Source: Thermoplasmata archaeon
Lineage (GTDB): Archaea > Thermoplasmatota > Thermoplasmata > RBG-16-68-12
Reading direction: 5' to 3'
NCBI GenBank assembly: GCA_036395115.1
Contig: DASWDU010000034.1
Coordinates: 14,941 to 78,940 of the forward strand
Length of the DNA: 64,000 bases
The notes below the pieces were generated by a model, which worked only from the letters and a program-made list of their open reading frames with translations, was not told the origin of the DNA and did no database searches. Both the position numbers and the translations under genes were made by a program. Shown piece by piece: positions 3,711 to 49,844 of the stretch (positions are counted from its first letter, which is position 1; each line of letters begins with the position of its first letter).

Positions 3711-3860
3711 CTTTTGTGTTACACGCACATGCGAAGGAGCCTGATTGAGCGTGGCGTCCTCCGATAGAGCGGGGTCTTGCCCTCATTTCCCGCAGCAATG
3801 CATAAATAGACCGCCACTCATTCATATCGATGGAGTGCAGGGGTTCCCGGGGGTTTTAAC

Positions 3861-4211
3861 ATGACGTGGCATCTATGTCATAGCTGTGGAAAAGTCGTTG
3901 ACGTCGACCCGTACGTTGAAGCGTGCCCCGAATGCGGGGTCCACATCCCGGTTCCGCCCCACGAGCGCGGCTGGATGGGTCCGCCGCCGCCTCCGCCTCC
4001 GATTCCGCCCATGTCCAGGATGTACGGCCCTCCGGGGTACGCCCGTCCGGTCAACCCTGCTTCGGTGGCGGCGTCCAGCCGGCCCGAGAACCCCGAGATT
4101 CGAACTCTCCTCGACAAGAACGCCGTGCTCGAGGAGGAGAACGCCAAGCTGAAGAGAGATCTGGCAGAGAAGGAAGCGGCGCGAATACGGGGAGTGGGGG
4201 AGGGGAACTAG
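3861..4211 (+). CDS. Small zinc-ribbon protein with Pro-rich linker and C-terminal coiled coil
   Basis: 'CHSCGKV...CPECG' CxxC pair, a PPPPPPPIPP tract, then 'LLDKNAVLEEENAKLKRDLAEKEAARI'. Confidence 0.5.
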   Translation: MTWHLCHSCGKVVDVDPYVEACPECGVHIPVPPHERGWMGPPPPPPPIPPMSRMYGPPGYARPVNPASVAASSRPENPEIRTLLDKNAVLEEENAKLKRDLAEKEAARIRGVGEGN

Positions 4212-4215
4212 CCAA

Positions 4216-5079
4216 GTGGACGTTGACGTACGCCTCCGGGAAGAAGTCGCTGGCAACCTGTACATCAGGACCATCACGATGGGCGCCTCGCCGGCGGCCA
4301 TGGAATGGTATTCCCGACGCCTGCCCGAGTTCGCGAAGCACGACTTGCCGAAGTACCGCGACCCCGGAGCGGCGTTCGCGGAGTTTGCCAGCATTCCTTT
4401 CGCGAACGTGCCACTCGCAAGTCCATTGCCCAGCGGCATCATGGTGAACCTCGCACAACGGGGCTTCTCCGGGATGAAGGGGATCTCCGACGTGCGGTTG
4501 TTGCAGACCGAAGTCGTACGGATGGGCCGGACGATCGGGGCGGAAATCCTCGCCTCCGAAGAGTCCGTGGCCTCGCGTTTCGACCGACTCGTCTACCCGG
4601 AGGAACGCATCGTCACGATCGGCTCGAGCAGCCTCTGCGAACGGGCGCTTGTGAATGCTCAAGCGCGCGGAAAGAAACCATCGGTTACAGTCTTGCTGGC
4701 GTCCGCCAAGCCCGAGACTCTGACGATCGGGAACCGCCTCACCCAGTCGAATCTCGACGTGTCCTATGGTTTCCTTGCCGACTCCATCCAACACGTTGGA
4801 TCCGCTGATCGCGTGGTCGTCGGCGCGCATCTGATCACGGAAGACGGCGACGTCGTCTCGTCACAAGGTGCGGATCTTCTCGCCCTTGCGGCGAAGCGGC
4901 TCGGCAAGCCGGTCATTGTCCTCGCGGGGCCGTTCAAGGCGGTCGGCCGATCGACCAATCATTATTCGGACTACCTTCGGATGGTCGACCTCGAACTGGA
5001 CTTCACGGTCGACCGCTACGCCGTGGGCACGCGCGACTTTTCGGTCGTCTCCCGGGACCTCATCGACGCGATTCTGTAG
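4216..5079 (+). CDS. eIF-2B alpha/beta/delta family protein (aIF-2B subunit-like)
   Basis: Family pattern '...IVTIGSSS...VLLASAKPE...VVVGAHLITEDGDVVSSQGADLLALAAKRLGKPVIVLAGPFK'. Confidence 0.65.
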   Translation: MDVDVRLREEVAGNLYIRTITMGASPAAMEWYSRRLPEFAKHDLPKYRDPGAAFAEFASIPFANVPLASPLPSGIMVNLAQRGFSGMKGISDVRLLQTEVVRMGRTIGAEILASEESVASRFDRLVYPEERIVTIGSSSLCERALVNAQARGKKPSVTVLLASAKPETLTIGNRLTQSNLDVSYGFLADSIQHVGSADRVVVGAHLITEDGDVVSSQGADLLALAAKRLGKPVIVLAGPFKAVGRSTNHYSDYLRMVDLELDFTVDRYAVGTRDFSVVSRDLIDAIL

Positions 5080-5126
5080 GCGATAGGCTTATCTGGTCCG
5101 TCGCTTGAGGGGGCCCTCCGGTCTCC

Positions 5127-6719
5127 GTGATCAACGAAGTCGTTTCCCTGACCCTCTTGATTGCGCTCCTCATCAGCGTCGCTCTCGATGCGGTCCACCG
5201 GACGAGCATCGCGATTGGAATCGCGTTTGCCGGCGTAGTGATCGGCTCGATCCTCCCGGAGACACGGGACGTGCCGGGGAAAGGGCTCCCCTATTTCGGC
5301 CCCGGGACTGCGCTCGGGGCGGTCAACTTCCAAACCCTCGTCTTCCTGGTGTTCATGGGCGTGTTCATGGCGATTATGCAACGAAGCGGCGCCTTCGACT
5401 GGGTGACGAAGACGCTGGTTCTGAAGAGTCGGATGCAGCCCGGCATCCTTTTCGTCCGGATCCTCCTCTTGTCGTACGCGATTTCGCTCTTCGTGAATAA
5501 CGTCACCGTCGTCTTCATCATGGTTCCCATCACGCTGAACATCTGTCGGCAGTTCGGCGTGAATCCCGTGCCGTTCAGCGTGGCACAGGTCGCCGCCATC
5601 AACCTCGGCGGTGCCTCGACGATGGTGGGCGATTTTCCGAACATCATCATCGCGACGTCGCAGAAGCCGATCGAACTGACCTTCTTGGATTTCCAGACGA
5701 ACATGTTCCCCGCCTGCTTCGCTCTCCTTGTGGCGGAGATCCTCCTGTTCAGCCGCATGCACCCCGAATACTTCACGCGCTTCGAGCCGGGGCCTGCGGC
5801 CCGCGCCTTTGCGGCGGACCTCGCCGAGCGTCGAAGCACGGCAATCACGGACAAGCGCCTCCTCCAGGTGTCCGTGTTGGTCCTGGCCGCCATGTTGGGC
5901 GCATTCGTCGTTTCGACGACGCTTCGGATTCCCATTGCGCTGATTCCGGTTGCCGGAGCCGGCAGCATCCTCATGATATACGAGGTGCGACTGCGATCGA
6001 GGCACCCGCTAGACGCTACGTTAGACAAGCTGCAACGCAGGAACATCATCGGCGACGAGATTTCCAAGGTCCTGAGCGAGGTGCACTGGGACGTCGTGCT
6101 ATTCCTCGCGGCCCTGTTCGTCGTGGTCGGATCGCTGGAGCATACCGACGTCCTCACGTGGGCGGCCAATTTCATTCTCGGGACCTCGCAAGGGAACCCT
6201 GTGCTCGCAGTCATACTCATCGTGGTCCTTGCATCCATCATCACCATGGGCGCGGAGGCGGGACCCGCGACGGCGGTCCTTATCCCGGTGATTAACCAAC
6301 TCACGGTGGCTGGGCTCGGGTCGGGGGGTTTGCTCTACTGGGCACAGTCGCTGGGTGTGCAGGCTGGGTCGAGTACCACGATGATCGGGGCCAACGAGGG
6401 TCCTCTGGCTGCACGGATGATCGAGCAGGACGCGCGGATACACAACGCTTCGGACAGACTGACTGCGAAGGGCTTCACCCGGATTGGCGCGCGCATGTGG
6501 CTCCTTTTCATTCCGCTTTCCATCGTTTACCTGACGGGCTTGATCTTCTTTGGTTGGATGGTCTCAGGGGCTGCGTTCGTCCTCGCCCTTGTCGGGTCCC
6601 TTTGGATTGCGGCCCGCGGACTTGGGGGGGGGGGCGGCCCAGGACCGGCGCCGAGCGTGGCGTCATCCCAAAGGGGACCGACGGCGCCGCCAGCGTCGCC
6701 ATCCCGACGGACCCGCTGA
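5127..6719 (+). CDS. ArsB/NhaD-superfamily anion permease, paralog 1; C-terminal ~30 aa probably artefactual or frameshifted
   Basis: GTG start 'MINEVVSL'. Polytopic membrane protein '...VNFQTLVFLVFMGVFMAIMQRSGAFDWVTKTLVLKS...'. After the G11 tract at 6624-6634 the frame yields 'GGGGGPGPAPS...RRTR', absent from paralog 2. Confidence 0.7.
   Translation: MINEVVSLTLLIALLISVALDAVHRTSIAIGIAFAGVVIGSILPETRDVPGKGLPYFGPGTALGAVNFQTLVFLVFMGVFMAIMQRSGAFDWVTKTLVLKSRMQPGILFVRILLLSYAISLFVNNVTVVFIMVPITLNICRQFGVNPVPFSVAQVAAINLGGASTMVGDFPNIIIATSQKPIELTFLDFQTNMFPACFALLVAEILLFSRMHPEYFTRFEPGPAARAFAADLAERRSTAITDKRLLQVSVLVLAAMLGAFVVSTTLRIPIALIPVAGAGSILMIYEVRLRSRHPLDATLDKLQRRNIIGDEISKVLSEVHWDVVLFLAALFVVVGSLEHTDVLTWAANFILGTSQGNPVLAVILIVVLASIITMGAEAGPATAVLIPVINQLTVAGLGSGGLLYWAQSLGVQAGSSTTMIGANEGPLAARMIEQDARIHNASDRLTAKGFTRIGARMWLLFIPLSIVYLTGLIFFGWMVSGAAFVLALVGSLWIAARGLGGGGGPGPAPSVASSQRGPTAPPASPSRRTR
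6624..6634 (+). repeat. G11 homopolymer inside the 3' end of permease paralog 1
   Basis: 'cttggggggggggcggccc' read directly from the sequence. Confidence 0.9.
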
Positions 6720-6956
6720 ACCGCAACGTACGGCGGTACGCGCGCTGAAGCCGGATGCGGGCGGAGAGGTGGCCTTCCCGGACCGGGTCGAGACTCGTGT
6801 CCTTGCCAGCCCCTGCCAGCCCGAGAACCTCACGATTGAGAAGCCAAACGCACCGTCGAGTCCCGCGGGGTCCAGCGGCTTCCTGGGCGACGCGATGAAT
6901 GTCGGGTCCGCCGATCCGGTGACCATCGGCGCCCGGCTGACTACCGAGTTGATGAC

Positions 6957-8447
6957 GTGATCAACGAAATCGTTTCCCTAGTCCTTCTGTTCTCGTTGCT
7001 CATCGCGGTCGCACTCGACGTGGCCCACCGGACGACGATCGCGATGGGGGTTGCGATTGCCGCAGTCGTGGTCGGCTCAATACTCCCATACGAAGGCACC
7101 GACCCAGCGAGGTTTGGCCAAGGGTACTTCCCGCCATGGGTCGCACTCCAAGCGGTCAACTTTGAGACCCTCATCTTCCTGGTCGGCATGGGGGTGTTCG
7201 TGGCGATCATGCAACAGAGCGGCGCTTTCGACTACGTGACGAAGACGCTCGTCCTCAAGAGCAAGATGCAGCCGGGCATCCTATTCGTCCGAATCCTACT
7301 CTTGTCGTACGGCATTTCGTGCTTCGTGAACAACGTCTCCGTCATCTTCATCATGGTCCCGATAACGCTCAACATCTGTCGGCAGTTCGGCCTCGACCCC
7401 GTGCCGTTCAGCGTGATACAGGTCGCCGTCATCAACCTCGGCGGGGCCTCGACGATGGTGGGCGATTTTCCAAACATCATCATCGCTACGTCGGGGACGA
7501 ACCTGTCCTTCGTGGACTTCCAGGTGAACATGTTTCCCGCCTGCTTTGCGCTTGTGATCGCGTCGATTCTCCTGTTCCGTCGCATGCACCGCGAATACTT
7601 CACGCGCTTCGAGCCGGGGCCTGCCGCCCGCGCCTTTGCGGCGGACCTCGCCGAGCGTCGCGACACCTCAATCACAGACCGGCGCCTCCTTCAGGCGTCC
7701 GTGGTGGTCCTAGTGGGCATGTTGGGCACATTAGTCTTCTCGACGCAGCTTGGGATCCCTCTCGCCCTGATTCCGGCCGTCGGGGCCGCCATCATCCTCA
7801 TCCTATACGAAATGCGCCTGCGCGTCAGGCAGCCCTCGGGCGCCGCGTTAGACAAGATCCAACGTAGGAACCTCATCGGCGACGAGGTCTCCAAGATCCT
7901 GAGTGAGGTGCACTGGGACGTCGTCCTGTTCCTCATGGCCCTGTTCGTCGTGGTCGGCTCACTGCAGGCGACCGCTGTCCTCGACTGGGCGGCCGATTTC
8001 ATTCTCGGTGCCTCGTCAGGCGACCCCTTGCGAGCTTCGATGCTCATCGTTGTCATCGGATCCATCGTTTCCCTCAGCGCTGCGGCAGGACCCGCGACGG
8101 CGGTCTTCGTCCCTGTGATCAAGAAGCTTTCTGGGGTCGGGTCCGGGGGGTTGCTTTACTGGGCTCTGTCGTTGGGGGTACAGGCTGGGTCGAGCACCAC
8201 CTTGATCGGGGCGAACGAAGGTCCCCTGGCCGCTCGGATGATCGAGCAGGACTCGCGGGCACACAACGCTTCGAGTCGATTGGATGCCAAAGGTTTCAGT
8301 CGGATTGGGGGGCGCTTGTGGCTCATGATGATTCCGCTCTCCATCCTTTACCTGGCGGGCATCATTACGCTCGGCTGGATCGTCTCGGTGGCGGCTCTCG
8401 TCATTGCCCTCGTCGGGTCCTTCTTGATTGCCGTCCGGGGAATCTAG
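6957..8447 (+). CDS. ArsB/NhaD-superfamily anion permease, paralog 2 (tandem duplicate)
   Basis: GTG start 'MINEIVSLV', near-identical N-terminus and overall collinearity with paralog 1; ends '...VGSFLIAVRGI'. Confidence 0.75.
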   Translation: MINEIVSLVLLFSLLIAVALDVAHRTTIAMGVAIAAVVVGSILPYEGTDPARFGQGYFPPWVALQAVNFETLIFLVGMGVFVAIMQQSGAFDYVTKTLVLKSKMQPGILFVRILLLSYGISCFVNNVSVIFIMVPITLNICRQFGLDPVPFSVIQVAVINLGGASTMVGDFPNIIIATSGTNLSFVDFQVNMFPACFALVIASILLFRRMHREYFTRFEPGPAARAFAADLAERRDTSITDRRLLQASVVVLVGMLGTLVFSTQLGIPLALIPAVGAAIILILYEMRLRVRQPSGAALDKIQRRNLIGDEVSKILSEVHWDVVLFLMALFVVVGSLQATAVLDWAADFILGASSGDPLRASMLIVVIGSIVSLSAAAGPATAVFVPVIKKLSGVGSGGLLYWALSLGVQAGSSTTLIGANEGPLAARMIEQDSRAHNASSRLDAKGFSRIGGRLWLMMIPLSILYLAGIITLGWIVSVAALVIALVGSFLIAVRGI

Positions 8448-12923: not shown

Positions 12924-15623
12924 TCATCCGCTCTCGATCCCGAGTCGCTGGCGGACGAGTTCCTCGAGCCGCGCCGCGGCGGCCCTCGCCTGGTCGGCGT
13001 TCGGGAAGCTCGCCTGTGCGAAGTCCGGCTTTCCGCCGCCCTTGCCGTGGAAGTCCGGCGCGACGCTCCGGACGAGCTCCGCCGCGTCGATCGGCACCTG
13101 CACGCCGCGCGTGAGGACGAGCTTCACGTCGCTCGGCGACGGCGCCCAGTAGATCCCGATCGCCCGCGACTCGGAGGCGGTCGCCTTCGACATCGAGAGC
13201 ATGAACCCGACCCCTTGTGGGACCTCGGACCGGAGGATCGGCCATGGACCTTTCGCGGTCTCGATTTCCTGTCGCGTCTTCGCGGCCGCCTGCTCGTCCG
13301 TCGCCCGCTGGGAGATCTTGCGGTACTCCTTCCACTCGGCCACAATCCGCTCCGCGGCCGGCACGACGCGGTCCCCCGGCACTTCGAGGATCTCCGCGAC
13401 GCGCGCGAGCTCCTCGGCCTGCTTGCGCACGGCCTCGAGCGCGCCTTTGCCGGCGGCGTACTCCAGGCGGACGACGCCGTCCTGGATCCGGGTTGATCGG
13501 AGGATCTTGATCAAGGAGACGTCGCTCGTCCGCGAGACGTGGGTGCCGCCGCATGCCTCGACGTCCCACTTCGGGATCTCGACGACCCGCAGCTCGCCCC
13601 CGGGGACGGAGCCACCCTGATAGAGCCGGAAGCCGTACTTCCGCTCCGCGACGTCCCGGGCGAGGAACGTCGCCCGCACCTGGCGCCGCGCGAGGACCTC
13701 GTCGTTCGCGAGCGCCTCGATCTTCGTGACTTCCGCGTCGGTCAGGGCGTCGAAGTGGGTGATGTCGAGACGCGCCATGTCAGCGGCCTTGTGCGCGCCC
13801 GCCTGCCACACGTGGTTCCCGAGCGCCTTCCGCGCGGCGCCGAGGACGATGTGCGTGGCGGTGTGGTTCCGCATGAGTGCCTCCCGCCGCTCGCCGTCGA
13901 TCGCGCACGCGACGCGTGCGCCCTTGAGCGCGGACGCGTCGCCGCGGACGAAGTGCAGCACGCTGGCCCCGACCTTCTGGACGTCGTAAACCTCCCGGTC
14001 CCCGATTGTCCCGTGGTCCGCCTCCTGGCCGCCGCCTTCCGGGTAGAAGTACGTCTGGTCGAGGACGACCGCCTCGCCTTCGACCGCGAGGACCTTGGCC
14101 CGGAAGGCGCGCTTCCGCTTGTCCTCGTAGACGCGGAGCTTCGTCGGGGGGAGCGCCTTGGAGACCGTGACCTTCTTCGTCGCCTCGGCGGCCGCGGGCC
14201 GTTCGTGGCGGGCGGCGACCCGCGAGTAGAAGTCGTCCGGCACCTCGACGGGGGCGTCCGCGAATTCCCGGACGACGTCCGGGTTCAGTCCGTGGCTATC
14301 GTAGAGCTGGATCAACGTGTCGACGTCGAAGGCCTTCCCGGCGGCCTTCAGGTCCGCCGCGATCTTGCCGACCGTGGCACGGCCCTTTTCGAGCGTCTCA
14401 CGATACCGGGCCTCCTCGACCTTCAGGAGTTTCAGGATGTCGCCTTTGTTGAAGAAGAACTCCGGGTAGTCCTCCCGCATCTGGTCGATCATGAACGAGA
14501 CGGTGTCCGCGAGGCTGTACGTGATGTTGAGGTCCTTCAGCGCTCGCAGCCCGCGGCGCACGAGGAGGCGGGCGAAGTACCCCTCCCGGCTGTTCGACGG
14601 CACGACGCCGTCGCCGAGGAGGAAGATCAGGGCGCGCGCGTGGTCGCACACCGTGTACAGTGCTTCGAGGGGCGAGACCTGGGCGACGAGCTCGTCGACC
14701 GAGAGGCCGACCCGTTCTGCGGTCTGCCGGCGGATCTCGCGGATGTCCGCGAGGCTCTCGACCTTCAGCAGGCCCGCGACCTTCGAGTACTCCCGCAGCA
14801 CGCGGTCGTCCACGCGCTTCGCCCCGGTCGCGCGCTTCAGGTATGCGAGCGCGTCGCCGAAGACGGCCTCGTACGCCGACGTCGTGCCTTGGGAGAGCCA
14901 CGTGAGCCGCTCGAGGCCGTAGCCCGTGTCGACGACTTGCGTGTCCATTGGCACTCGATGCCCGTTCACCTCGCGGTTCATCATGAACACGAGCGTCGCG
15001 GCTTCCGCGCCGCCGAAGACGACCTCGAAGCACGGCCCGCTGTTCCCGCCGCCCTCCCACCACGACTCCTTGTACCGGACGACATCGGGCTTGAGGCCGA
15101 GCCGATCCGTGAGGAAGCCGTGGCACAGTTCGACAGTGTGATCCTTGAAGTACAGGAACTTCCCCGGAAAGTTGAACGCGTGGTGGGCCATCATCTCGAA
15201 CATCGTGAAGTGCTGCCCCGTCTTCCCGACGTTGTCGACATCGAGGAAGCGGACGCACGGCTGCGAGAGTGTGAGCGGGTTCGCAGGCGGGCTCGCCTCG
15301 CCGCTGATCACCCACGGCTGGAACGGGTAGACGCTCGCCTGCACGAAGAAGACGTCGTCGCGCCAACGGGCGACAATCGGGTAGCGCTTCACGCGAGTGT
15401 GGCCGTTCTGCTCCAGGTAGGAAAGGAAGTCCTCCCGCATCGCGCGGTAGGTGAGCTTCTTGGCGAACGGAGGATTCCCGATGAAGTCGTACTCCTGGCA
15501 CGGGGCCTCGCCACACGTCTCGTGCTGACCGATCGCCCAGAAGGCCTTCCCGCACTTCGCGCACGTCTGGCGAGTGAATCCCTGCTTGCGGAACAGCTCG
15601 ACCTCGTATTCACTCTCGGGCAT
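12924..15623 (-). CDS. alaS: Alanine--tRNA ligase (archaeal type)
   Basis: 899 aa. N-terminal 'FTRQTCAKCGKAFWA' zinc motif, class II AlaRS core, and a C-terminal 'HTATHIV...CGGTHV' editing-domain-like motif. Confidence 0.95.
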   Translation of the reverse strand: MPESEYEVELFRKQGFTRQTCAKCGKAFWAIGQHETCGEAPCQEYDFIGNPPFAKKLTYRAMREDFLSYLEQNGHTRVKRYPIVARWRDDVFFVQASVYPFQPWVISGEASPPANPLTLSQPCVRFLDVDNVGKTGQHFTMFEMMAHHAFNFPGKFLYFKDHTVELCHGFLTDRLGLKPDVVRYKESWWEGGGNSGPCFEVVFGGAEAATLVFMMNREVNGHRVPMDTQVVDTGYGLERLTWLSQGTTSAYEAVFGDALAYLKRATGAKRVDDRVLREYSKVAGLLKVESLADIREIRRQTAERVGLSVDELVAQVSPLEALYTVCDHARALIFLLGDGVVPSNSREGYFARLLVRRGLRALKDLNITYSLADTVSFMIDQMREDYPEFFFNKGDILKLLKVEEARYRETLEKGRATVGKIAADLKAAGKAFDVDTLIQLYDSHGLNPDVVREFADAPVEVPDDFYSRVAARHERPAAAEATKKVTVSKALPPTKLRVYEDKRKRAFRAKVLAVEGEAVVLDQTYFYPEGGGQEADHGTIGDREVYDVQKVGASVLHFVRGDASALKGARVACAIDGERREALMRNHTATHIVLGAARKALGNHVWQAGAHKAADMARLDITHFDALTDAEVTKIEALANDEVLARRQVRATFLARDVAERKYGFRLYQGGSVPGGELRVVEIPKWDVEACGGTHVSRTSDVSLIKILRSTRIQDGVVRLEYAAGKGALEAVRKQAEELARVAEILEVPGDRVVPAAERIVAEWKEYRKISQRATDEQAAAKTRQEIETAKGPWPILRSEVPQGVGFMLSMSKATASESRAIGIYWAPSPSDVKLVLTRGVQVPIDAAELVRSVAPDFHGKGGGKPDFAQASFPNADQARAAAARLEELVRQRLGIESG

Positions 15624-15654
15624 TCCCGGCTGGATGAACGCGCTCGATATAAAG

Positions 15655-15960
15655 ATGTATCAAGAGTGACCGCGCCTGCACCTCCAGGTGCCGTCCGGAG
15701 GCCAGAGGCGGCGTTTTGTAGGATTCTTCAAAACGGTCACTCGACCCGAACGTCGAGATGGCCGTACGCCACACTCTTAGCCTTGTAGACGTTTTCAAAG
15801 CCGCGCGGAGCGTGGAGACGGTTTTGCAAGGTCCTTCAAAACAGATTCGTGGCCCGACTGGGGCGATCGCCTGATTTCGAAATATCCTACAAAAAGGGCA
15901 GGCCGCGTTTCGCATTTTTGAAGGACTCTACAAAAGGGACTCAAGTCACTCTCGTATCAA
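15655..15960. repeat. Intergenic block with five copies of an imperfect palindrome TTTTG-N10/11-CAAAA (core tAGGAtyCTa), bounded by an inverted repeat (caagAGAGTGAC ... GTCACTCTcg)
   Basis: Copies at ~15713-15734, 15782-15800, 15821-15842, 15883-15900 and 15914-15938. Flanking inverted repeat at 15660-15670 and 15945-15954. Confidence 0.6.
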
Positions 15961-23957: not shown

Positions 23958-24975
23958 GCGGGTGTCCCGCAAGAAGCCGTCCGTCCGACGATCGCGGGAT
24001 TCCGTCCGCGGGCTCGTCGAGGCCCTCCTCCGCGGAGATAAGCGGGCGGCGGGAAAGGTCATCTCGCTCATCGAGGACGACGAACCGGAGGCCGTCGAGG
24101 CCGTCGCCCGGATATTCCCGCACACGGGCCGCGCCCACGTCGTCGGGTTCACGGGACCGCCCGGAGCGGGAAAGAGTTCCCTCATCAACCGCCTGGTCCG
24201 CACGTTCCGCGGGAAGGACAAGAAGGTCGGCGTCGTCGCGGTCGATCCGACGTCCCCATATTCGGGCGGCGCGGTGCTAGGCGACCGCATCCGCATGGCG
24301 GACACGGGCGTCGATCCGGGGGTCTTCATCCGCTCCATGGCGACGCGCGGGCACGCGGGCGGACTGGCCCTCGCCACGTTCGACGCGGTGCGGGTCCTCG
24401 ACGCGCTCGGCATGGACGTCGTGTTCGTCGAGACGGTCGGCGCGGGGCAGAGCGAGGTAGAGATCGCGACGCGCGCGCACACGACAGTCGTCGTCGAGAT
24501 GCCCCTGACCGGGGACGTGGTCCAGACGATGAAAGCAGGCATCCTGGAGATCGGCGACGTCTACGTCGTGAACAAGGTGGATCTGGGCAACGACGACGTC
24601 CTCGTGGCGAACCTGACGTTTCAGCTGCAAGCCCGAGACGGCTGGACCCCGCCGATCGTTCGGACGATCGCGACGGACGGCCGCGGAGTCGACGAGCTCG
24701 CCGACGCCCTAGTGCGCCATGCGGAGTTCCTCGACCGAACGGGCCTCCGACGAAAGCGGGAAGTGGCGCGGGCCCGGCTCGAAATCCTGGAGAACGCACA
24801 GCGATCGCTCGCGCGTCGGGTCGAGGACACGTCCCGGTTGGGCGTAGCGTTCGATAGGCTCGCGCAGGAGGTCGCCGATCGCCGGATGGACCCGCACACC
24901 GCGGCCCTGAATCTCCTGGAGCGCCGAAACAAGAGGGCCCGCAAGAGTTCCGGAGACGCTCGGGGTGGGATTTGA
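23950..24975 (+). CDS. meaB: MeaB/ArgK-type G3E GTPase (methylmalonyl-CoA mutase chaperone)
   Basis: Walker A 'GPPGAGKSS'; '...[12 protein letters not shown]...NKVDL...'. Overlaps mcmA2 by 8 nt. Its 3' end overlaps the antisense tRNA. Confidence 0.85.
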
Positions 24976-25030
24976 ACCCACGATCTGCGACTTAGGAGGT
25001 CGCTGCCTTGTCCGTGCTGGGCCACCCGAG
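24957..25030 (-). tRNA. tRNA-Arg (anticodon CCU)
   Basis: Cloverleaf read from the minus strand: acceptor GCUCGGG/CCCGAGC, anticodon arm GCGAC-CUCCUAA-GUCGC, T-arm GUGGG-UUCAAAU-CCCAC, discriminator G, no encoded CCA. Confidence 0.8.
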
Positions 25031-25127
25031 CGCTGCGACGAGGCCTTGGCCCGCCATTAAAATTTCGGCCTCGATGAACCGATGCGGCCCAGCGTGCGAC
25101 GCAGACCGCGTTTTTTGGCTCAGAGGA

Positions 25128-29683: not shown

Positions 29684-32305
29684 ATGGCGACGTCGAACCG
29701 CTTACCCGACACCGTCCGACCGGAGACGTATTCGATCGAGTTGCGGCCGGATCTCGGGGACTTTACCTTCCGAGGGAGCGAGTCCATTCGGATTCGCGTC
29801 GCGCGGCCCGTGAAGACGATCATCCTGAACGCCAAGGAGCTCCAGGTCCACGAGGCGACCGTGCGGTCGTCCCGGGGCCGCCCGGTGCCCGCCGCCCGGA
29901 TCGACACGGAGCCGACCACCGAGCGGGTGCGCCTGACCTTCGCGGACCCGATCCCGAAAGGCGCGGCCACGCTCGCCCTCGGCTTCACGGGGACACTGAA
30001 CGATCAGCTCGCGGGATTCTACCGGAGCAAGTACACCACGACGGCGGGCAAGGAGGGCTACATGGCCGCCACTCAGTTCGAGGCGACGGACGCCCGCCGC
30101 GCGTTCCCCTGCTGGGACGAGCCGGCGGCGAAGGCGGCTTTCGAGGTGACGCTCATCGTACCCGACGGAATGGCGGCGGTCTCGAACACTCCGGTCCTCC
30201 AAGACGAGCGCCTCGTCGATGGGACGCACCGCGTGCGATTCGCGAAGACGCCGACGATGTCGACGTACCTCCTGGCGTTCGTGATCGGCCCGCTGGAAGC
30301 CCTCAAAGGCTCGATGGCAGGCAAGACGGAGCTCGGCGTGTGGGCGCTGCCCGATCGGGTCGGCCACGGTCGTTGGGCCCTCGAGAGCGCGTCCCGCATC
30401 CTCTCCTACCTGAACGAGTACTACGGAATCCCGTATCCGCTCGAGAAGCTCGACCACGTGGCCCTCCAGGATTTCGCGGCGGGCGCGATGGAGAACTGGG
30501 GCGCGATCACGTACCGGGAACGGATCCTCCTCTTCGACCCGTCCACGTCGTCGGCGCAGACGAGCCAGAACATCGTGGACGTTATCGCGCACGAGACCGC
30601 CCACATGTGGTTCGGCGACCTCGTCACGATGGCGTGGTGGGACGACCTCTGGCTCAACGAGAGCTTCGCGTCCTGGATGGGGAACAAGGCCGTCGACGCG
30701 CTCCATCCCGAGTGGCGCATGTGGACGCAGTTCCTCCTCTTCGACACGATTCGCGGCCTCGGCCTCGATGGCCTCCGTAACTCGCATCCGATCGAGGTCC
30801 GGGTCGAGGACCCCGCCGAGATCCGCGAGATCTTCGACGAAATCAGCTACAGCAAGGGCGCGTCGATCCTCTGGATGCTCGAGCAGTTCCTCGGCGAAGA
30901 CGCGTTCCGCCGCGGGCTGCGGCGCTACCTGAACGCGCATCGATACGGGAACGCCCGCACGGAAGACCTCTGGACGGCGCTCGAGGACGTGTCCCGAAAG
31001 CCCGTGCGGGCCTTGATGGGCACATGGACGAAGCAGACCGGCTTCCCCCTCGTCGACGTCCAAATCTCCAGGAAGGCGAAGGAGGCCACGGTGAGGCTCA
31101 CCCAGTCCCGGTTCTTGTACGAGCACCTCGCGGGAGCCCCGGCGGGGAAGGCGCTCTGGAAGGTCCCCGTCCGGATCGCGCGGGCGGGTGCGCCCGAGGT
31201 GGAACGGTCCCTGATGGAGAAGCGGACGGAGACCCGGAAGGTCGCCAAGGGGAAGAGGCCTCCGGACCGGGATTGGATCAAGGTGAATGCGGGGCAGTCC
31301 GGCTTCTACCGGGTCAACTACCCTCCGGAAGAATGGGACCGGCTACGGCGGGCCGTCGTGGCGGGCGAGCTCGAGGCGGAAGATCGACTCGGCCTCCAGA
31401 ACGACGCGTACGCCCTCACGGTCGCCGGATACCTGCCGGCGATGTCGTTCCTCGAGCTGACGTCCGCGTACCGAGACGAAGACAACACCACCGTGTGGCA
31501 AGGGATCGCGGATTCCTTGATGGGATTCGAGAGCCTGATCGCCGACCGGCCGTACCTGGATTCCTTCTACGAGTACGCGAGGGACCTGTTTCGACCGGTC
31601 GTGGCCCGCACCGGATGGGCCCCTAAGAAAGGAGAAGGCCACCTCGACGCCCTGCGCCGGATGACGGTGCTCTCCCGTCTCGGCCACTACTTGGACCGAC
31701 CGGTCTTGGACGAGGCGTCGAGGCGCTTCGCGGACTCCCTGAAGGATCCCGCGTCCCTGCCTCCCGACCTGCGTTCCGTCGTGTACGGGCTCGTCGCCCA
31801 GGAGGCGGACGAGGCGACGTACGAGACCTTGTGGGGGCTCGAGCAGAAGTCGGCGCTCCAAGAGGAGCAGGTCCGCCTCCTCCTCGCCCTGACGCGGCCC
31901 CGAGGGGAATCCCTCCTCCGGGAAACCCTCGCTCGGGCCCTGTCGGACGCAGTCCGGTTCCAGGATGCGCCGATCGTGATCCGGGGCGTGGCGACGAGCC
32001 GACCGAGCGTCGGGAGGGACCTCGCGTGGACCTTCATCAAGGCGAACTGGGATGAGTTGTATCGGCGGTATTCACCTTCCGGATTCCTCATCCGCGGGCT
32101 CGCCGCAGTCCCGGAGACGTTCGCAAGCGCCAATCGGGCGCGGGAGATCGAGGCCTTCTTCAAGAGTCATCCGTCGCCCGGCGTCCGGCGGACCGTGAAA
32201 CAGGTAATGGAGAAGATCCGCGTGAACGCCGCGTGGCTCCGGCGCAACGACAAGGCTCTTGCGGCCTGGTTCCGAGGGCACGAGCCTTCGACAGCTCGCG
32301 AGTGA
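29684..32305 (+). CDS. M1-family aminopeptidase (aminopeptidase N / tricorn-interacting-factor-like)
   Basis: 'GAMENWG' motif and 'HETAHMWFGDLVTMAWWDDLWLNESFA' (HExxH-x18-E). 873 aa. Confidence 0.9.
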   Translation: MATSNRLPDTVRPETYSIELRPDLGDFTFRGSESIRIRVARPVKTIILNAKELQVHEATVRSSRGRPVPAARIDTEPTTERVRLTFADPIPKGAATLALGFTGTLNDQLAGFYRSKYTTTAGKEGYMAATQFEATDARRAFPCWDEPAAKAAFEVTLIVPDGMAAVSNTPVLQDERLVDGTHRVRFAKTPTMSTYLLAFVIGPLEALKGSMAGKTELGVWALPDRVGHGRWALESASRILSYLNEYYGIPYPLEKLDHVALQDFAAGAMENWGAITYRERILLFDPSTSSAQTSQNIVDVIAHETAHMWFGDLVTMAWWDDLWLNESFASWMGNKAVDALHPEWRMWTQFLLFDTIRGLGLDGLRNSHPIEVRVEDPAEIREIFDEISYSKGASILWMLEQFLGEDAFRRGLRRYLNAHRYGNARTEDLWTALEDVSRKPVRALMGTWTKQTGFPLVDVQISRKAKEATVRLTQSRFLYEHLAGAPAGKALWKVPVRIARAGAPEVERSLMEKRTETRKVAKGKRPPDRDWIKVNAGQSGFYRVNYPPEEWDRLRRAVVAGELEAEDRLGLQNDAYALTVAGYLPAMSFLELTSAYRDEDNTTVWQGIADSLMGFESLIADRPYLDSFYEYARDLFRPVVARTGWAPKKGEGHLDALRRMTVLSRLGHYLDRPVLDEASRRFADSLKDPASLPPDLRSVVYGLVAQEADEATYETLWGLEQKSALQEEQVRLLLALTRPRGESLLRETLARALSDAVRFQDAPIVIRGVATSRPSVGRDLAWTFIKANWDELYRRYSPSGFLIRGLAAVPETFASANRAREIEAFFKSHPSPGVRRTVKQVMEKIRVNAAWLRRNDKALAAWFRGHEPSTARE

Positions 32306-32457
32306 AGCGGCCAGTCCGAAGCCTCCTCGTGCCGTAGGCGAGTTGATCCCTATCTCGGCAGGTAGCGGGAGAGGAACGAATATTGAGCGGAAGAGTCTTA
32401 CCGAACCCCCGAGGGACCTGGTTGGCGGCATCACAGTCGGAGGCCGTTGAGGTCAAG

Positions 32458-33102
32458 GTGAGTGCGCGCTCTATTGGGAAGAAGCCGAGGACAGTCTTCG
32501 TGGCGTATCCATACAAACTATTCGCTGGAGAAGACTATCGGGCTGTGTTTGATCGCGTGGGAAAGGCGCTCGGCGTGAAATTCACGTTTGCCGACCAGAA
32601 GATACTTGATGTCCACATCTTGGAAAAGATCGCCCTCATGATCAAAGAAGCAGAGTTCTCCATTTTCGACATCTCAGGGTGGAATCCAAACGTTACCTTG
32701 GAGTATGGACTGGCTCTCGGATTTGGCGAGAAGAAGTTCCTGCTGTTCGATCCAGGCAAGACAGAATTTAGTGAAGTGCCCGCGGATGTCAGGGGGTTTG
32801 ACCGGCTTGAGCACCGGTCCTATGCAGAACTTGAGCGTGCCCTCACGTTCCTCATCGCCCAGGAGTTCCCGCCTGAGAAGAAAGCCGACCCACTCGGAGA
32901 CTTACAAGTCCAGATTAAGGACCTCCTTGCAAGAACGCCGGGGGTTTCAAGGAGCACCGTCGCAGCGGCGCTCGGGATTAGGCCGGAACTGGCTAGCTTG
33001 GTGCTCGGCCAGATGGTCGGCACCGAGCTTGAGGTGCGCGGGGAAAGGAGGGGCACGAAGTACTACCTTAAAGGCTCAGCACCAGCGGGGCCAAACCATT
33101 AG
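32458..33102 (+). CDS. Fusion protein: nucleoside 2-deoxyribosyltransferase-like (NDT/Rcl-fold) N-domain plus C-terminal winged HTH
   Basis: 'TVFVAYPY...' Rossmann-like start; 'FDISGWNPNVTLEYGLALGFGEKKFLLF' matches the NDT-family catalytic-Glu block. C-terminal '...STVAAALGIRPELASLVLGQMVGTELEVRGERRGTKYYL' is a wHTH. Visibly lower GC. Start ambiguous: TTG at 32383 or GTG at 32458. Confidence 0.6.
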   Translation: MSARSIGKKPRTVFVAYPYKLFAGEDYRAVFDRVGKALGVKFTFADQKILDVHILEKIALMIKEAEFSIFDISGWNPNVTLEYGLALGFGEKKFLLFDPGKTEFSEVPADVRGFDRLEHRSYAELERALTFLIAQEFPPEKKADPLGDLQVQIKDLLARTPGVSRSTVAAALGIRPELASLVLGQMVGTELEVRGERRGTKYYLKGSAPAGPNH

Positions 33103-33198
33103 CCGCACTTTGGCGGAGGCCTTTGATCCACGGGGGCAAACACAGCCGCGGCCTCCGTAATGCGTCTGGCGGCCTCCTAACCACGTCCCCGCAATGTT

Positions 33199-33783
33199 GT
33201 GGGAGCGGCCCAGACCCCAATATCTGGTATTGCGGAGTCGGTCCCAAAACATTCATTCTCTCGGGCTGACTTGCGGTCAAGCGTGAGAAGCGTCCGGATC
33301 AACCGCAGGCTGGGGGTAGGCCCTAAGCCGCTCACGACCGTGTTCCCCGGCCTGGATCGGGACCCGAACTTCATCGCGCTTTTCAACGACGGGCTGCGGG
33401 AGAAGGTCTTGGCCGAGACGCGCGTGAATCTGGTCCCCGAAGACTCCTACGCCTACATCGACGACGAGCGGGGGTGGGTGAACCTCGGGCATGGATACCT
33501 GAAGACCGGCGAGGCCCGAATCCTCTACCTCGACATCCTGCACGAATTGACCCACATCCGCCAGTGGCACGAGGGGAAGGAACTATGGGATCGGAAGTAC
33601 GACTACGTAGACCGGCCTACCGAGGTGGAGGCCTACCGGGTCGCGGTTGAAGTCGCCCGGAAGATCGGGATGACCGACCGGGAAATCGCCGATTATCTCC
33701 GGGTGGAATGGACCAGCCGCGAAGAGCACGAGCGGCTGTGCCGCCGCCTCGGGGTGCGGCAGACCGACTCCCGCGCTCACTGA
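33199..33783 (+). CDS. HExxH putative metallopeptidase-like protein (DUF4157-like)
   Basis: '...GWVNLGHGYLKTGEARILYLDILHELTHIRQWHEG...'. The resemblance to the DUF4157 block (Gly-rich segment followed by 'LLAHELTHVVQ') is from memory. Confidence 0.55.
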   Translation: MGAAQTPISGIAESVPKHSFSRADLRSSVRSVRINRRLGVGPKPLTTVFPGLDRDPNFIALFNDGLREKVLAETRVNLVPEDSYAYIDDERGWVNLGHGYLKTGEARILYLDILHELTHIRQWHEGKELWDRKYDYVDRPTEVEAYRVAVEVARKIGMTDREIADYLRVEWTSREEHERLCRRLGVRQTDSRAH

Positions 33784-33837
33784 CTGCCTATGATTGTCTG
33801 ACGGGGCTGATGGGGGAATCACCCGATCAAGGGCAAA

Positions 33838-34176
33838 GTGTACATGTACATCGACGACGACGCCGGCAACGTCGTGGCAGGCCTCGGCTACCTGCGGACG
33901 GGGGAGTCGCGCATTCTGTATCTCGACGTGTTGCATGAACTCACGCACATCCGCCAGTGGCATGCGGGCCGCGAGCTCTGGGACCGTCGGTACAACTACG
34001 TCGACCGCCCGACGGAGATCGAGGCGTATCGAATCGCGGTCGACGAGGCGCGTCGTCTCGGGATGACGGACCGGGAGATCGCCGACTATCTCCGCGTGGA
34101 GTGGACGAGCCGCGAGGAGCACGAGCGGCTTTGCAAGCACCTCGGCGTCCGCAGCCCCGAATCGCGCGCCGTCTGA
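33838..34176 (+). CDS. HExxH DUF4157-like protein, tandem paralog (N-terminally shorter)
   Basis: '...GNVVAGLGYLRTGESRILYLDVLHELTHIRQWHAGRELWDRRYNYVDRPTEIEAYRIAV...'. Collinear with the upstream paralog, including the C-terminal '...DREIADYLRVEWTSREEHERLC'. Confidence 0.55.
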   Translation: MYMYIDDDAGNVVAGLGYLRTGESRILYLDVLHELTHIRQWHAGRELWDRRYNYVDRPTEIEAYRIAVDEARRLGMTDREIADYLRVEWTSREEHERLCKHLGVRSPESRAV

Positions 34177-34223
34177 GGGCAAGGCCTCAAATCGACGGGG
34201 CCTGTTCCGCGCAGGCGAGGCAG

Positions 34224-47202: not shown

Positions 47203-48858
47203 TCACATCCCCATTCCGGGCATGCCGCCCATCCCGCCCATGCCGCCGCCGTGTTCGCCGCCACCGGGCGGAGGCGGGGGCGACTTCTTCGAGGCGATGA
47301 TGTCGTCGATGCGGAGGATCATGCCCGCGACTTCCTGGGCGGACTCGATTTCTTGGGTCTTGACACGGAGCGGCTCGACGATGTTCGCCTTGAGCATGTC
47401 GAGGGGCTCGCCCGTCATGACGTTCACTCCCATCGACTTGCCGCCCTTCTTCCCGTGTTCCGCGCGGAGCTTGATCAGGACGTCGATCGGATCGAGGCCC
47501 GCGTTTTCGCCGAGCGTCCTCGGGATCACGTCGAGCGCCTGCGCGAACGCTTCAATCGCCAACTGTTCCCGGCCCCCGATCGTCGCCGCGTAATCCTTGA
47601 GCGCCAGGGACAGCTCGACCTCCGCCGCCCCGCCGCCGGCGATCGCCTTGCCGTCCTCGATCGTCGCAGCCACCACGCGCAGCGCGTCGTGGAGGATTCG
47701 CTCGACCTCATCGACGACGTGCTCCGTGCCGCCGCGCACGAGGATCGACACGGCGCGGGCTTTCTTGCAGCCGGTGACAAAGGTCATGTCGTCCGTCCCG
47801 ACCTTCCGCTCCTCGACGAGCTCGGCGCTCCCGAGTTCCTTCGCCGTGAGGTCGTCCAGGTTCGTGACCGCGCGCGCGCCCGTCGCCTTCGCGAGCTTCT
47901 TCATATCGCTTTCCTTGACGCGACGCACCGCGTAGATGCCCTCCTTCGCGAGGTAGTGCTGTGCGACGTCGTCGATGCCCTTCTGGCACAGGACGACGTT
48001 GGCCCCGGATGCCCTGATCTTGTCGACCATCGTCTTGAGGCTCTTCTCTTCCTCGTTCAGGAACAGCTGTAGCTTGCCCGGATCGCGGATTCGGATCTCC
48101 TCGTTCACCTCGGTCTTCTTGACCTCGAGGGCGCGGTTGATCAGGGCGATCTTCGCGTCGCGGACGAACTTCGGCATCCGAGGATGCACGCGCTCTTTGT
48201 CCAAGACGACGCCGTCGATCAGGTTCGTGTCGCTCAGGCTCCCCCCGTGTTTCTTCTGGACGAGGATGTTGTCGACGTCCGCGCGGAGTTCCCCCGCGAC
48301 CTCCTCGACGATCGACTGCACCGCGTCCACGGCGATGCCGGCGAGGAAGTCGGCATTCGTACCGACGCTGCGGCCAGACATCGCCGTCCGGGCGATCGAC
48401 CGGAGGGTCGTCTTGTCGTCCCTCTTCACGGGGAAGGCGAGCTGGTTGAGTCGGCGGACCGCCTCGGCCGCCGCCATCCGGTAGCCGTTCACGATGATCG
48501 TCGGGTGGACCTCCTGCTCGATCAGGCTCTCGGCGGCTTTCAGGAGTTCCCCGGCGAGGATGACGGCACTCGTCGTCCCGTCTCCGACCTCGTCGTCCTG
48601 CGTCTTAGCGACCTCGACGAGCATCTTCGCCGTCGGGTGTTCGATCTCGATTTCCTTGAGGATCGTGACCCCATCGTTCGTAATCGTCACGTCGCCGAGA
48701 GAGTCGACGAGCATCTTGTCCATGCCTTTCGGGCCAAGGGTCGACTTGACCGCATCGGCGACCGCGCGGGCGGCGGCGATGTTGTTCGACACTGCGCCCT
48801 TGCCCTTCTCCCGTTCCGTCCCTTCCTTCAAGATGATGATTGGCTGACCGCCCATCAT
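47203..48858 (-). CDS. ths: Thermosome subunit (group II chaperonin)
   Basis: '...[28 protein letters not shown]...' and a C-terminal GGM repeat tail. Confidence 0.95.
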
Positions 48859-48991
48859 TTGGATTCCCGCGGGTCTATGCGAGGGCTTCTATATGAGCGT
48901 TGCCCTTGAGTGGTTCCGTTGCGTTGTTCTTGGCGCCCCCGGGGGGCGGGTGAGAGTGGCTCGCGATGGTCTTAGGGAACCGAGGTGGGGC

Positions 48992-49162
48992 TTACCGGAA
49001 CAAGATCTCAGTCCTGAGCGCCTTCCCATCGAAGTGTACTATCATTTTCTTCGTTTTCAGCTGACGCCAAGTCCACTCGGCGACTTCCTTTGGCTCACAG
49101 ACCTTGAAGTTGCGTCTGTCAACAATAATCTCTTGGATGATATGCCGGCGCTCATATCTCAC
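48992..49162 (-). CDS. Hypothetical small protein (56 aa) in the low-GC island
   Basis: GTG-start ORF from my own translation: 'VRYERRHIIQEIIVDRRNFKVCEPKEVAEWTWRQLKTKKMIVHFDGKALRTEILFR'. Confidence 0.25.
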   Translation of the reverse strand: MRYERRHIIQEIIVDRRNFKVCEPKEVAEWTWRQLKTKKMIVHFDGKALRTEILFR

Positions 49163-49185
49163 CGGCGACTCTGGAAGGTCTATGG

Positions 49186-49467
49186 TTACTCCTCGCCAAG
49201 AATCCAGATCCTCAGTTTGTCTCCTTCCCTGTGAACCGCGTACTCTTGTCCGGACGTGTCACGAAAGAGGGATAGCGTGTCTTCTGACATCTCTTCGGGC
49301 ACGAGCCGGAAGAGCGGTTCTCTCAGCTGGGACATGCGCATTACACCCTGCTCGAAGGTCTTGATCCATTGGGTGAGGCTTCTAAAGGGATTAAAACGAA
49401 ATGGGGTTCCGATCTCTCGTCCGATGCCTGTTAAAACCTGACCGCCTGGTATCAGTCCATGACTCAC
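49186..49467 (-). CDS. Hypothetical protein (93 aa), low-GC island
   Basis: ATGA overlap with the upstream 126-aa gene, suggesting an operon. Confidence 0.35.
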   Translation of the reverse strand: MSHGLIPGGQVLTGIGREIGTPFRFNPFRSLTQWIKTFEQGVMRMSQLREPLFRLVPEEMSEDTLSLFRDTSGQEYAVHREGDKLRIWILGEE

Positions 49468-49844
49468 GGTTTTCCGCCCTCCGCTTCCTGGATTAGTGAA
49501 CGATACCTCTTCAGCACGTTCTCGATGTTCTGCGAGAACAGCTCCTTGTCCTCCGAACTGGCCGTGAGGATGTCCCCGCCCCGTGTTAGAATAGGACTTA
49601 CGTCCATGATGAACTTTATGAAACGACCGGCTTGCTCGTCGGGAATCCTCGAAAGGAAGCCCGCGAGGGCATTCGGATCATTGAGCTTCGTCAGTACGTC
49701 CGACTTGAGTCCCGTTTCGGCCTCGAGCGTCGCCATGTCCCGTGCCAACCCTCCGAAAATCTTGACGAGTCCGTACATGAAAAGAATCAGCTTGCGAGAG
49801 TCAGGCTCTCCGACCTTCGGTTCTGGCATGGGCGGCCCGTTCAC
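49464..49844 (-). CDS. Hypothetical acidic protein (126 aa), low-GC island
   Basis: No recognisable motif; first gene of a three-gene minus-strand unit divergent from the DGQHR gene. Confidence 0.4.
   Translation of the reverse strand: MNGPPMPEPKVGEPDSRKLILFMYGLVKIFGGLARDMATLEAETGLKSDVLTKLNDPNALAGFLSRIPDEQAGRFIKFIMDVSPILTRGGDILTASSEDKELFSQNIENVLKRYRSLIQEAEGGKP

Follow-up and report, generated by a model that had tools for sequence, protein, structure and literature searches.

The window analysed here is a 64-kilobase (kb) stretch of a soil metagenome-assembled genome (MAG) annotated as Thermoplasmata archaeon (GenBank assembly GCA_036395115.1, contig DASWDU010000034.1, positions 14,941 to 78,940). 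Between the gene for an M1 aminopeptidase, which ends at position 32305, and the gene for a tRNA-binding protein (tRNA_bind; true start ATG 34224) it holds three open reading frames (ORFs) on the same strand, which we call g1, g2 and g3 (Table 1). g1 encodes a fusion of a domain of the nucleoside 2'-deoxyribosyltransferase (NDT) type and a winged helix-turn-helix (HTH), and both g2 and g3 encode proteins with an HExxH motif. The initial annotation had read these genes, from the letters alone, as a compositionally distinct three-gene insert in which the fusion gene is followed by two tandem HExxH paralogs; the three ORFs and the peptide blocks that it quoted are indeed present.

Table 1. Features of the g1-g2-g3 locus, in window coordinates (aa, amino acids; nt, nucleotides; bp, base pairs).
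Feature	Position	Strand	Details
g1, mechanical ORF	32383..33102	+	
g2, mechanical ORF	33199..33783	+	
g3, mechanical ORF	33838..34176	+	
g1	32422..33102	+	TTG 32422 start, 226 aa; NCBI call and family alignment
g1, alternative starts	TTG 32383, GTG 32458	+	
g1, N-terminal alpha/beta domain	32488..32871	+	residues ~23-150; NDT / DNPH1 / MilB / TIR type
Glu94 codon	32701..32703	+	candidate catalytic nucleophile, within block DISGWNPNVTLE(Y/L)GLA
g1, C-terminal winged HTH	32890..33072	+	residues ~157-217
g2	33283..33783	+	GTG 33283 start, 166 aa; full-length xenologous copy; HExxH at 33541-33555
Spacer	33784..33838	+	g2 stop codon to breakpoint, 55 nt; two in-frame stop codons
g3, 5'-truncated resident HExxH gene	33839..34176	+	residues 55-166, 112 aa; HExxH at 33934-33948
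g3, start options of the open ORF	GTG 33838 or ATG 33844		
Palindrome remnant TGTACATGTACA	33839..33850	.	left from the 14-bp ATGTACATGTACAT (codons M-Y-M-Y-I)
Inserted foreign segment	32306..33838	+	~1.53-1.55 kb; right junction exact, 33838/33839
Left junction of the insert	~32283-32345		resolved to this interval only

The nearest relatives are L026 and L032, whose flanking proteins are 89-97% identical to those of the window. In both loci the M1 gene is followed by one HExxH gene of the g3 type and tRNA_bind, and g1 is absent. The window is colinear with both loci up to 32282 and resumes at 33839 (88% and 86% nt identity), a position equivalent to codon 55 of the HExxH gene in those loci. 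The ~1.53-1.55 kb in between stands where L026 has ~250 nt, an intergenic region followed by codons 1-54 of its resident gene. These comparisons show that a foreign segment of ~1.5 kb carrying g1 and g2 has replaced the promoter region and the first 54 codons of the resident HExxH gene; the insert comprises g1 and g2, and g3 is not a third inserted gene but what is left of the resident one. The replaced intergenic region includes a conserved TATA-like GGTTTTTCT element. In L001, L017, L019-L021, L025, L026, L029, L030 and L032 this element, of the form (A/T)AGGTTTTTCT, lies ~27-35 nt 5' of the resident HExxH start, a spacing that suggests a short-leader or leaderless transcript, and it is absent from the window.

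The two HExxH genes of the window have different histories. At the aa level g3 shares 91% identity with the resident gene of L026 and 89% with that of L032, and it falls among the resident orthologs in the tree. g2 is 86-90% identical to L004 and 81% to L003 but only 67% identical to its resident counterpart in the nearest relatives, and it groups with L004 in a separate clade. Because they belong to different clades and share 74% nt identity, g2 and g3 are xenologs and not the recent tandem paralogs that had been supposed, and a recent tandem duplication was ruled out on the same grounds. The truncated copy lacks 54 of 166 residues, not the ~40 first estimated, and retains every family-invariant residue. 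With g2 the genome has gained an intact HExxH allele that comes from another Thermoplasmata clade and now supplies the full-length protein; g3 is the decapitated resident gene. The gene most closely related to g2 (in L004, region 1709-6501) is found away from the canonical synteny, 3' of a tyrosine integrase gene and a split ResIII/DEAD helicase gene, and an unannotated 231-aa gene comes after it. Members of this subclade may move with mobile DNA.

Base composition also bears on the origin of the genes. The guanine-plus-cytosine (GC) content of g1 is 0.557 and that of its third codon positions (GC3) 0.656, against a GC3 of 0.83-0.93 in neighbouring genes, and g1 contains the 300 nt with the lowest GC anywhere in the 64 kb (0.497, 3.6 standard deviations under the mean). 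g2 and g3, with GC3 of 0.85 and 0.87, are like the neighbouring genes. The compositional distinctness claimed for the insert as a whole, once GC is calculated, therefore holds for g1 but not for g2 or g3: of the three genes, g1 alone is compositionally foreign. Given this difference in GC3 (0.66 versus 0.85), g1 and g2 could have arrived either together or in two steps.

A soil MAG in which two adjacent homologs belong to different clades raises the question of an assembly or binning artefact that joined reads of two Thermoplasmata populations. A separately assembled JGI metagenome contig (L047, 1768 bp), which may stem from the same reads, is 100% identical to window positions 32194-33961 over both junctions, and this counts against a chimera in the MAG. 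Furthermore, another genome (L016, below) repeats the architecture, and a chimera would not yield a clean 55-nt spacer followed by a copy cut at codon 55. We regard an artefact as scarcely credible.

We detected no homology of the 55-nt spacer to the regions 3' of g2-type genes or 5' of the resident gene, and no integrase, transposase, flanking repeats or att-like direct repeats in this region of the window, which is colinear with the relatives on both sides. Campbell-type or integrase-mediated integration was ruled out on these grounds, together with the wholly g2-type sequence of g2 and the mere 55 nt between the copies. The right junction, where ...GGGCAAAG runs directly into TGTACATGTACATCGAC, falls within a perfect 14-bp palindrome of alternating purines and pyrimidines, ATGTACATGTACAT, which codes for MYMYI in resident-type genes. 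We found the full palindrome in 17 intact g3-type genes; g2-type genes lack it, their alleles reading TCCTACGCCTACAT at this position (SYAYI in g2).

A similar arrangement is found in L016 (DATESQ010000059.1, 7995-8911), where a full-length g2-type copy is followed by an unrelated 77-nt spacer and then by a truncated copy whose start, after ...AACTA, reads TACATGTACATCGAT. In the tree the short copy groups as the sister of the intact L040 gene, which carries the palindrome and the same QWR, and the full copy shares only 74-80% identity with g2. Upstream lie genes for DnaJ, DnaK, a thermosome subunit and an SRPBCC protein; the usual M1 neighbourhood is absent and there is no g1. The lineage of L016 and the relations of its alleles indicate an independent event, with a breakpoint 1-3 nt from that of the window. 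We infer that both loci reflect illegitimate joining at a fragile palindrome. In the window the join would be neither integrase-mediated nor a homologous crossover, and the break would have occurred within the 14 bp of the palindrome.

We also considered that a site-specific integrative element or a homing-type nuclease targeting the HExxH gene made the arrangement. Two independent truncations 1-3 nt apart in one palindrome, with a palindrome-free allele upstream in both, would fit such an element, and the integrase and helicase genes beside L004 as well as the variable region 5' of the HExxH gene in L003, L027 and L016 point the same way. However, the window contains no integrase, nuclease, att-like direct repeat or element body and is colinear on both sides, g2 is entirely g2-type with no Campbell-type hybrid, and L016 has no g1 and different upstream genes, so that with two events only we consider a targeting element improbable. 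Equally doubtful is a more elaborate conjecture, by which breaks recur in the resident gene at the palindrome and a palindrome-free xenolog takes its place in situ, through a targeted nuclease or recombination activity recognising ATGTACATGTACAT-like sites. Palindrome-free alleles would then spread as resistant replacements, with g1 hitch-hiking as a single-gene immune effector. If true, this would amount to a drive-like route of allele turnover in archaea.

The truncated copy g3 could be a functional short paralog of minigluzincin size (~110 aa), with translation starting at GTG 33838 or ATG 33844 and selection maintaining it beside g2. Its ORF is intact with all invariant residues present, and its ratio of nonsynonymous to synonymous substitution rates (dN/dS) against intact orthologs is 0.064-0.086, equal to the range among intact genes; the short copy of L016 gives 0.11 over a dS of 0.67. 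Diverged natural HExxH homologs of 97-109 aa start at the position equivalent to that of g3, and the standalone minigluzincins selecase and projannalysin, with 104-109 aa, align over most of their length. On the other hand, two strands and the helices of residues 13-51, which are packed in the full-length model, are missing from g3, and the 55-nt spacer has no recognisable promoter or TATA-like element. A related copy with a MYMYIDD start (P0373) is frameshifted and continues into low-complexity sequence. The low dN/dS would fit a very recent truncation equally well, there being no closer relative by which to date the event. A functional g3 is thus possible, at what we judge to be well short of even odds.

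The gene that was displaced is a core gene of its clade. We found 553 close homologs of the HExxH protein, nearly all of 166 aa and 65-88% identical, with 49 invariant columns that include H87-E88-x-x-H91, RQWH, PTE114 and YLRVEW; an exhaustive profile search of 1.84 billion proteins yielded only 229 clusters at 50% identity. Across 38 species-representative genomes, together with metagenome contigs, the gene is present as a single copy in one conserved neighbourhood, ordered GATase4, AdoKin, M1 or M1-like gene, HExxH, tRNA_bind, NUDIX, GNAT, aminotransferase, ADH and NAD kinase. Of the 38 loci that could be evaluated, 29 have tRNA_bind immediately 3' of it and 3 others have it no more than 1 kb away. 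dN/dS among orthologs is 0.04-0.10, indicating strong purifying selection. The HExxH protein is a lineage-core, single-copy minimal gluzincin of 166 aa, fixed immediately 5' of tRNA_bind-NUDIX-GNAT-aminotransferase. The proposal that the HExxH genes are accessory does not survive this result, as the gene is core and syntenic in ~37 species-representative loci. In a number of relatives (L009-L015, L022, L031, L033-L038 and L041) the M1 position is occupied by a gene only 25-28% identical to the M1 aminopeptidase of the window, a distant M1 paralog at the equivalent position, and the remaining synteny is kept.

The AlphaFold2 model of g2 (predicted local distance difference test score, pLDDT, 93.8) has a zincin fold with HExxH on the active-site helix and a third-ligand Glu on the next helix, and g3 carries both motifs. 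The zincin-like character read from the sequence was therefore correct, and the HExxH motif, the Glu helix and the fold place the family among the gluzincins, as a minimal scaffold of the clan MA(E) type. Single-sequence searches of the window proteins against Pfam and NCBIfam gave nothing significant, and a PDB-sequence profile search gave no match for the HExxH protein. The resemblance to DUF4157 (PF13699) proposed at the outset found no support, with 0/55 family members matching at E <= 1 and none of the window proteins at E <= 10; the two share an HExxH motif in a small domain, but the genomic behaviour here is that of a core gene and not of a toxin module. The family touches, below threshold, on Peptidase_M78 (ImmA/IrrE; 20/55 members, best E 0.017) and Tox-MPTase3 only. 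There is no Xre gene among its conserved neighbours, which instead include tRNA_bind, NUDIX and GNAT genes, and no member was found on viral contigs. Identity to the minigluzincins (selecase MJ1213, projannalysin, proabylysin), M48/M56 cores and SprT/Spartan is 13-18%, with no profile relationship, and the family has 55 extra conserved N-terminal residues and its own invariant RQWH and YLRVEW blocks. Most likely the HExxH protein works in the cytosol as a Zn-dependent peptidase or amidase and has a role of the housekeeping type in the clade.

Several domain fusions and neighbours may serve as functional hints for the HExxH protein. A GNAT acetyltransferase is repeatedly fused to the N-terminus of distant homologs (P0249, P0250, P0253, P0258 and P0260), and another distant homolog is fused to AHSA1/SRPBCC and DUF3471 (P0257). 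In L016 an SRPBCC (Polyketide_cyc2) gene, at 6780-7538, lies directly 5' of the HExxH gene. The fused GNAT domains resemble the syntenic GNAT gene only through generic GNAT-motif similarity (E ~1e-3), and the distant HExxH clade (L043-L046) has no neighbours in common with the main clade and gives no functional hint. Two further variants were a tandem two-domain fusion in which the second HExxH motif is degenerate (P0241) and a protein with an in-frame internal deletion of residues ~43-85 (P0242).

For g1, the AlphaFold2 model (pLDDT 90.4) and its fold matches bear out the proposed fusion of an NDT fold and a winged HTH. Foldseek matched the N-terminal domain, a three-layer flavodoxin-like alpha/beta fold, to DNPH1/Rcl, MilB and NDTs at E 3e-5, and both profile and fold evidence identify the C-terminal domain as a winged HTH; over its full length the fold matches the DNA-bound response regulator PhoP. 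A PDB-sequence profile search with g1 gave weak winged-HTH matches only, with no match for the NDT domain. Glu94 is kept in at least 90% of 77 homologs, and D83, W87, N88, N90 and G96 are invariant. Glu94 lies within DISGWNPNVTLE.G.A, at strand 79-83 and helix 89-101 of the model, and by motif order and secondary structure, rather than by superposition, it appears equivalent to the catalytic Glu of NDT/DNPH1/TIR enzymes. Judged from the sequences, Glu94 and the D/W/N/N pattern are what would be expected of an N-glycosidase or NADase active site.

Profile searches place the g1 family nearest to NADase effectors. PF10137 is matched by 62/77 homologs at E <= 0.01, weakly (best E 5.5e-6) and not by the g1 of the window itself, whereas the PADLOC model of the CBASS 'Effector TIR' is matched by 76/77 homologs, that of PycTIR by 16 and that of PDC-S35 by 19. 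No member among the 77 matches PF05014 or PF15891 at E <= 0.01, nor does g1 at E <= 10, and DUF4062 is not among the families that the 77 match. Some members weakly match the PADLOC CasR/Csa3 models.

The family comprises at least 134 homologs of ~220 aa in bacteria and archaea, and in 51 of 53 loci their GC is below that of the flanks, by 7.5 points on average. Across 80 loci no neighbour recurs. Sampled neighbours include SLATT 2TM effectors, ThsB-TIR, TIR_2, CAP12-TIR, HsdM and a type IIG restriction-modification (RM) enzyme, as well as MTase-HD, DUF4365, HEPN, Schlafen/AlbA_2, tyrosine integrases and IS110. Two loci only are on viral contigs. Its low GC, its scattered family and the defence and mobile genes around its relatives bear out the suggestion that g1 is an accessory gene, acquired horizontally, of the kind found in conflict systems. 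In one 5.9-Mb bacterial contig (L128, 5692-13732) the g1 homolog stands between a TIR_2 + HTH_3 protein gene and a gene for a 375-aa CAP12-PCTIR_TIR protein, making an island of three different TIR-type genes with an IS110 transposase gene nearby. In L006 (5193-7129), and also in L007 and L008, a 252-aa homolog is bracketed by a 251-aa ORF, 52 nt 5', and a 120-aa ORF, neither of which has a Pfam match, and a 1043-aa type IIG RM gene adjoins; this set could be a small conserved operon of that subclade.

The same two-domain architecture is known from another setting. The effector of retron Ec86 consists of an NDT-like domain and a winged HTH (bioRxiv 10.1101/2023.08.16.553469), and g1 shares with such type II retron effectors the N-glycosidase-type fold with a catalytic-type Glu, the antiviral-conflict role that we predict for it and a domain of the kind that contacts nucleic acids. 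However, g1 has no detectable sequence similarity to Ec86-type effectors, and no reverse transcriptase or msr/msd partner is seen in the window or among sampled g1 neighbours. Neither the genes with Pfam annotation in L005-L008 and L127-L129 nor 20 sampled neighbours include a reverse transcriptase domain, and an Rfam scan of the window at gathering threshold found one tRNA only, non-coding RNA not having been searched for in the other g1 loci. CAP12 and PycTIR, of CBASS and Pycsar (PF10137), are the only sequence family that the g1 family touches consistently, and the Glu is conserved; g1 differs in having no SAVED or cNMP-binding domain, a winged HTH standing where the sensor would be, and the sampled neighbours include no cyclase or CD-NTase. 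Swarozyc, a TIR-like NADase of the DUF4062 type whose HTH/winged AUX domain binds to the portal of the phage (bioRxiv 10.64898/2026.05.01.722283), is likewise a single-gene system in which a TIR/NDT-like catalytic domain is joined to a winged-helix sensing module, but without a DUF4062 match in the g1 family the resemblance is architectural only. DNPH1/Rcl, MilB and the NDTs, in contrast, are stand-alone metabolic enzymes, from which g1 differs by its winged HTH, its mobile accessory nature and the lack of a PF05014 or PF15891 match.

By analogy with retron Ec86 effectors and Swarozyc, g1 might be a single-gene conflict or abortive-infection effector, a tentative proposal to which we give slightly less than even odds. 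Acting alone, its NDT/TIR-like domain would cleave the N-glycosidic bond of NAD+ or a nucleotide via Glu94, and the winged HTH would serve for sensing or tethering: through its binding to nucleic acid or to a viral protein it would gate or oligomerise the enzyme. We found no prior description of this stand-alone architecture in the literature on PDC-S35, COG4271/PF10137 or TIR-like domains joined to a winged HTH. A ligand-sensing transcription factor similar to Csa3 or to other regulators that join a Rossmannoid sensor to a winged HTH, with a pocket that binds a nucleoside or nucleotide and a winged HTH that controls nearby genes, would be a different use of the same fold. This is what a sensor-like alpha/beta domain joined to a DNA-binding domain would suggest, and the small size (~220 aa), the lack of a partner gene, the CasR/Csa3 matches and the PhoP-DNA fold match are all compatible with it. 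However, the near-invariant catalytic-type Glu and the D/W/N/N residues are arranged as in an active site, the neighbours vary with no conserved regulon, the closest profile relatives are NADase effectors and the CasR/Csa3 matches probably reflect the winged HTH alone. We consider a regulatory role the main alternative, but less probable than that of an effector.

These results on g1 and the HExxH gene can be set against the original view of the locus as one accessory nucleotide-signalling defence cassette, with g1 as an NDT/SLOG-like sensor and the HExxH proteins as DUF4157-like effectors. All three genes lie side by side on one strand, g1 is foreign in composition with relatives in defence islands, and the fold matches of the HExxH protein include the VgrG2b toxin domain. 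However, the HExxH gene keeps its core, syntenic position elsewhere without g1, g3 is a truncated resident ortholog, g2 and g3 have a host-like composition with neither a DUF4157 nor a PADLOC match, and no functional coupling is apparent: an HExxH gene is found in 0/83 other g1 loci and g1 in 0/41 other HExxH loci, L047 being excluded as the same DNA. We consider such a cassette very improbable. Instead, we propose with a probability of roughly 0.7 that the locus is a composite of one mobile gene of defence-island type and a foreign HExxH copy, brought about by gene displacement, and not a three-gene system.

Several observations weigh against this interpretation or parts of it. We found no donor for g1 and g2, and homology to g2-type loci ends at the coding region. 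The absence of relaxed constraint in g3 and in the short copy of L016, together with the natural forms of ~105 aa, means that the word remnant may understate g3. In L042 (VBLZ01000079.1, 7945-8252) a deletion of 272 nt, seen by comparison with the closely related L010, has removed the sole HExxH copy's start codon and what follows up to codon ~88, the H-E of HExxH included, with no replacement copy nearby; the gene is thus not strictly essential, unless there is another copy elsewhere in that MAG. The palindrome claim is based on two events only, and since MYMYI written with GC-rich codons gives the palindrome automatically, it need not be a selected DNA element. As to g1, it matches the PADLOC TIR effector model at E = 0.0014 and has no Pfam match of its own, the PF10137 matches of its family are weak, and the contexts in L127 and L129 are not defence-like. 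The activities ascribed here to g1 and to the HExxH protein are both predictions.

A striking three-gene cassette may thus prove to be one mobile gene beside a duplicated core gene, which is a caution for genome scans. The locus records in situ xenologous displacement at base-pair resolution, with a second independent event at the same palindrome, and documents a mechanism of allele replacement rarely described in uncultured archaea. g1 represents an uncharacterised, widely scattered family of stand-alone NDT/TIR-like and winged-HTH proteins that have the architecture of the Ec86 effector without a retron; as a single-gene immune protein depleting nucleotides or NAD it makes a reasonable candidate. 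The HExxH protein is a tightly conserved minimal gluzincin that belongs to no named family and is core to a clade of soil Thermoplasmata.

Elsewhere in the window, further low-GC patches (0.51-0.55), mostly intergenic, are found at 15600-15900 and 48850-49500, and neither has an Rfam match at gathering threshold. One is located 3' of the alanyl-tRNA synthetase gene and the other between a thermosome gene and a 126-aa ORF. The sole RNA gene of the window by ARAGORN and Rfam is a tRNA-Arg (CCT) at 24955-25032 on the minus strand.

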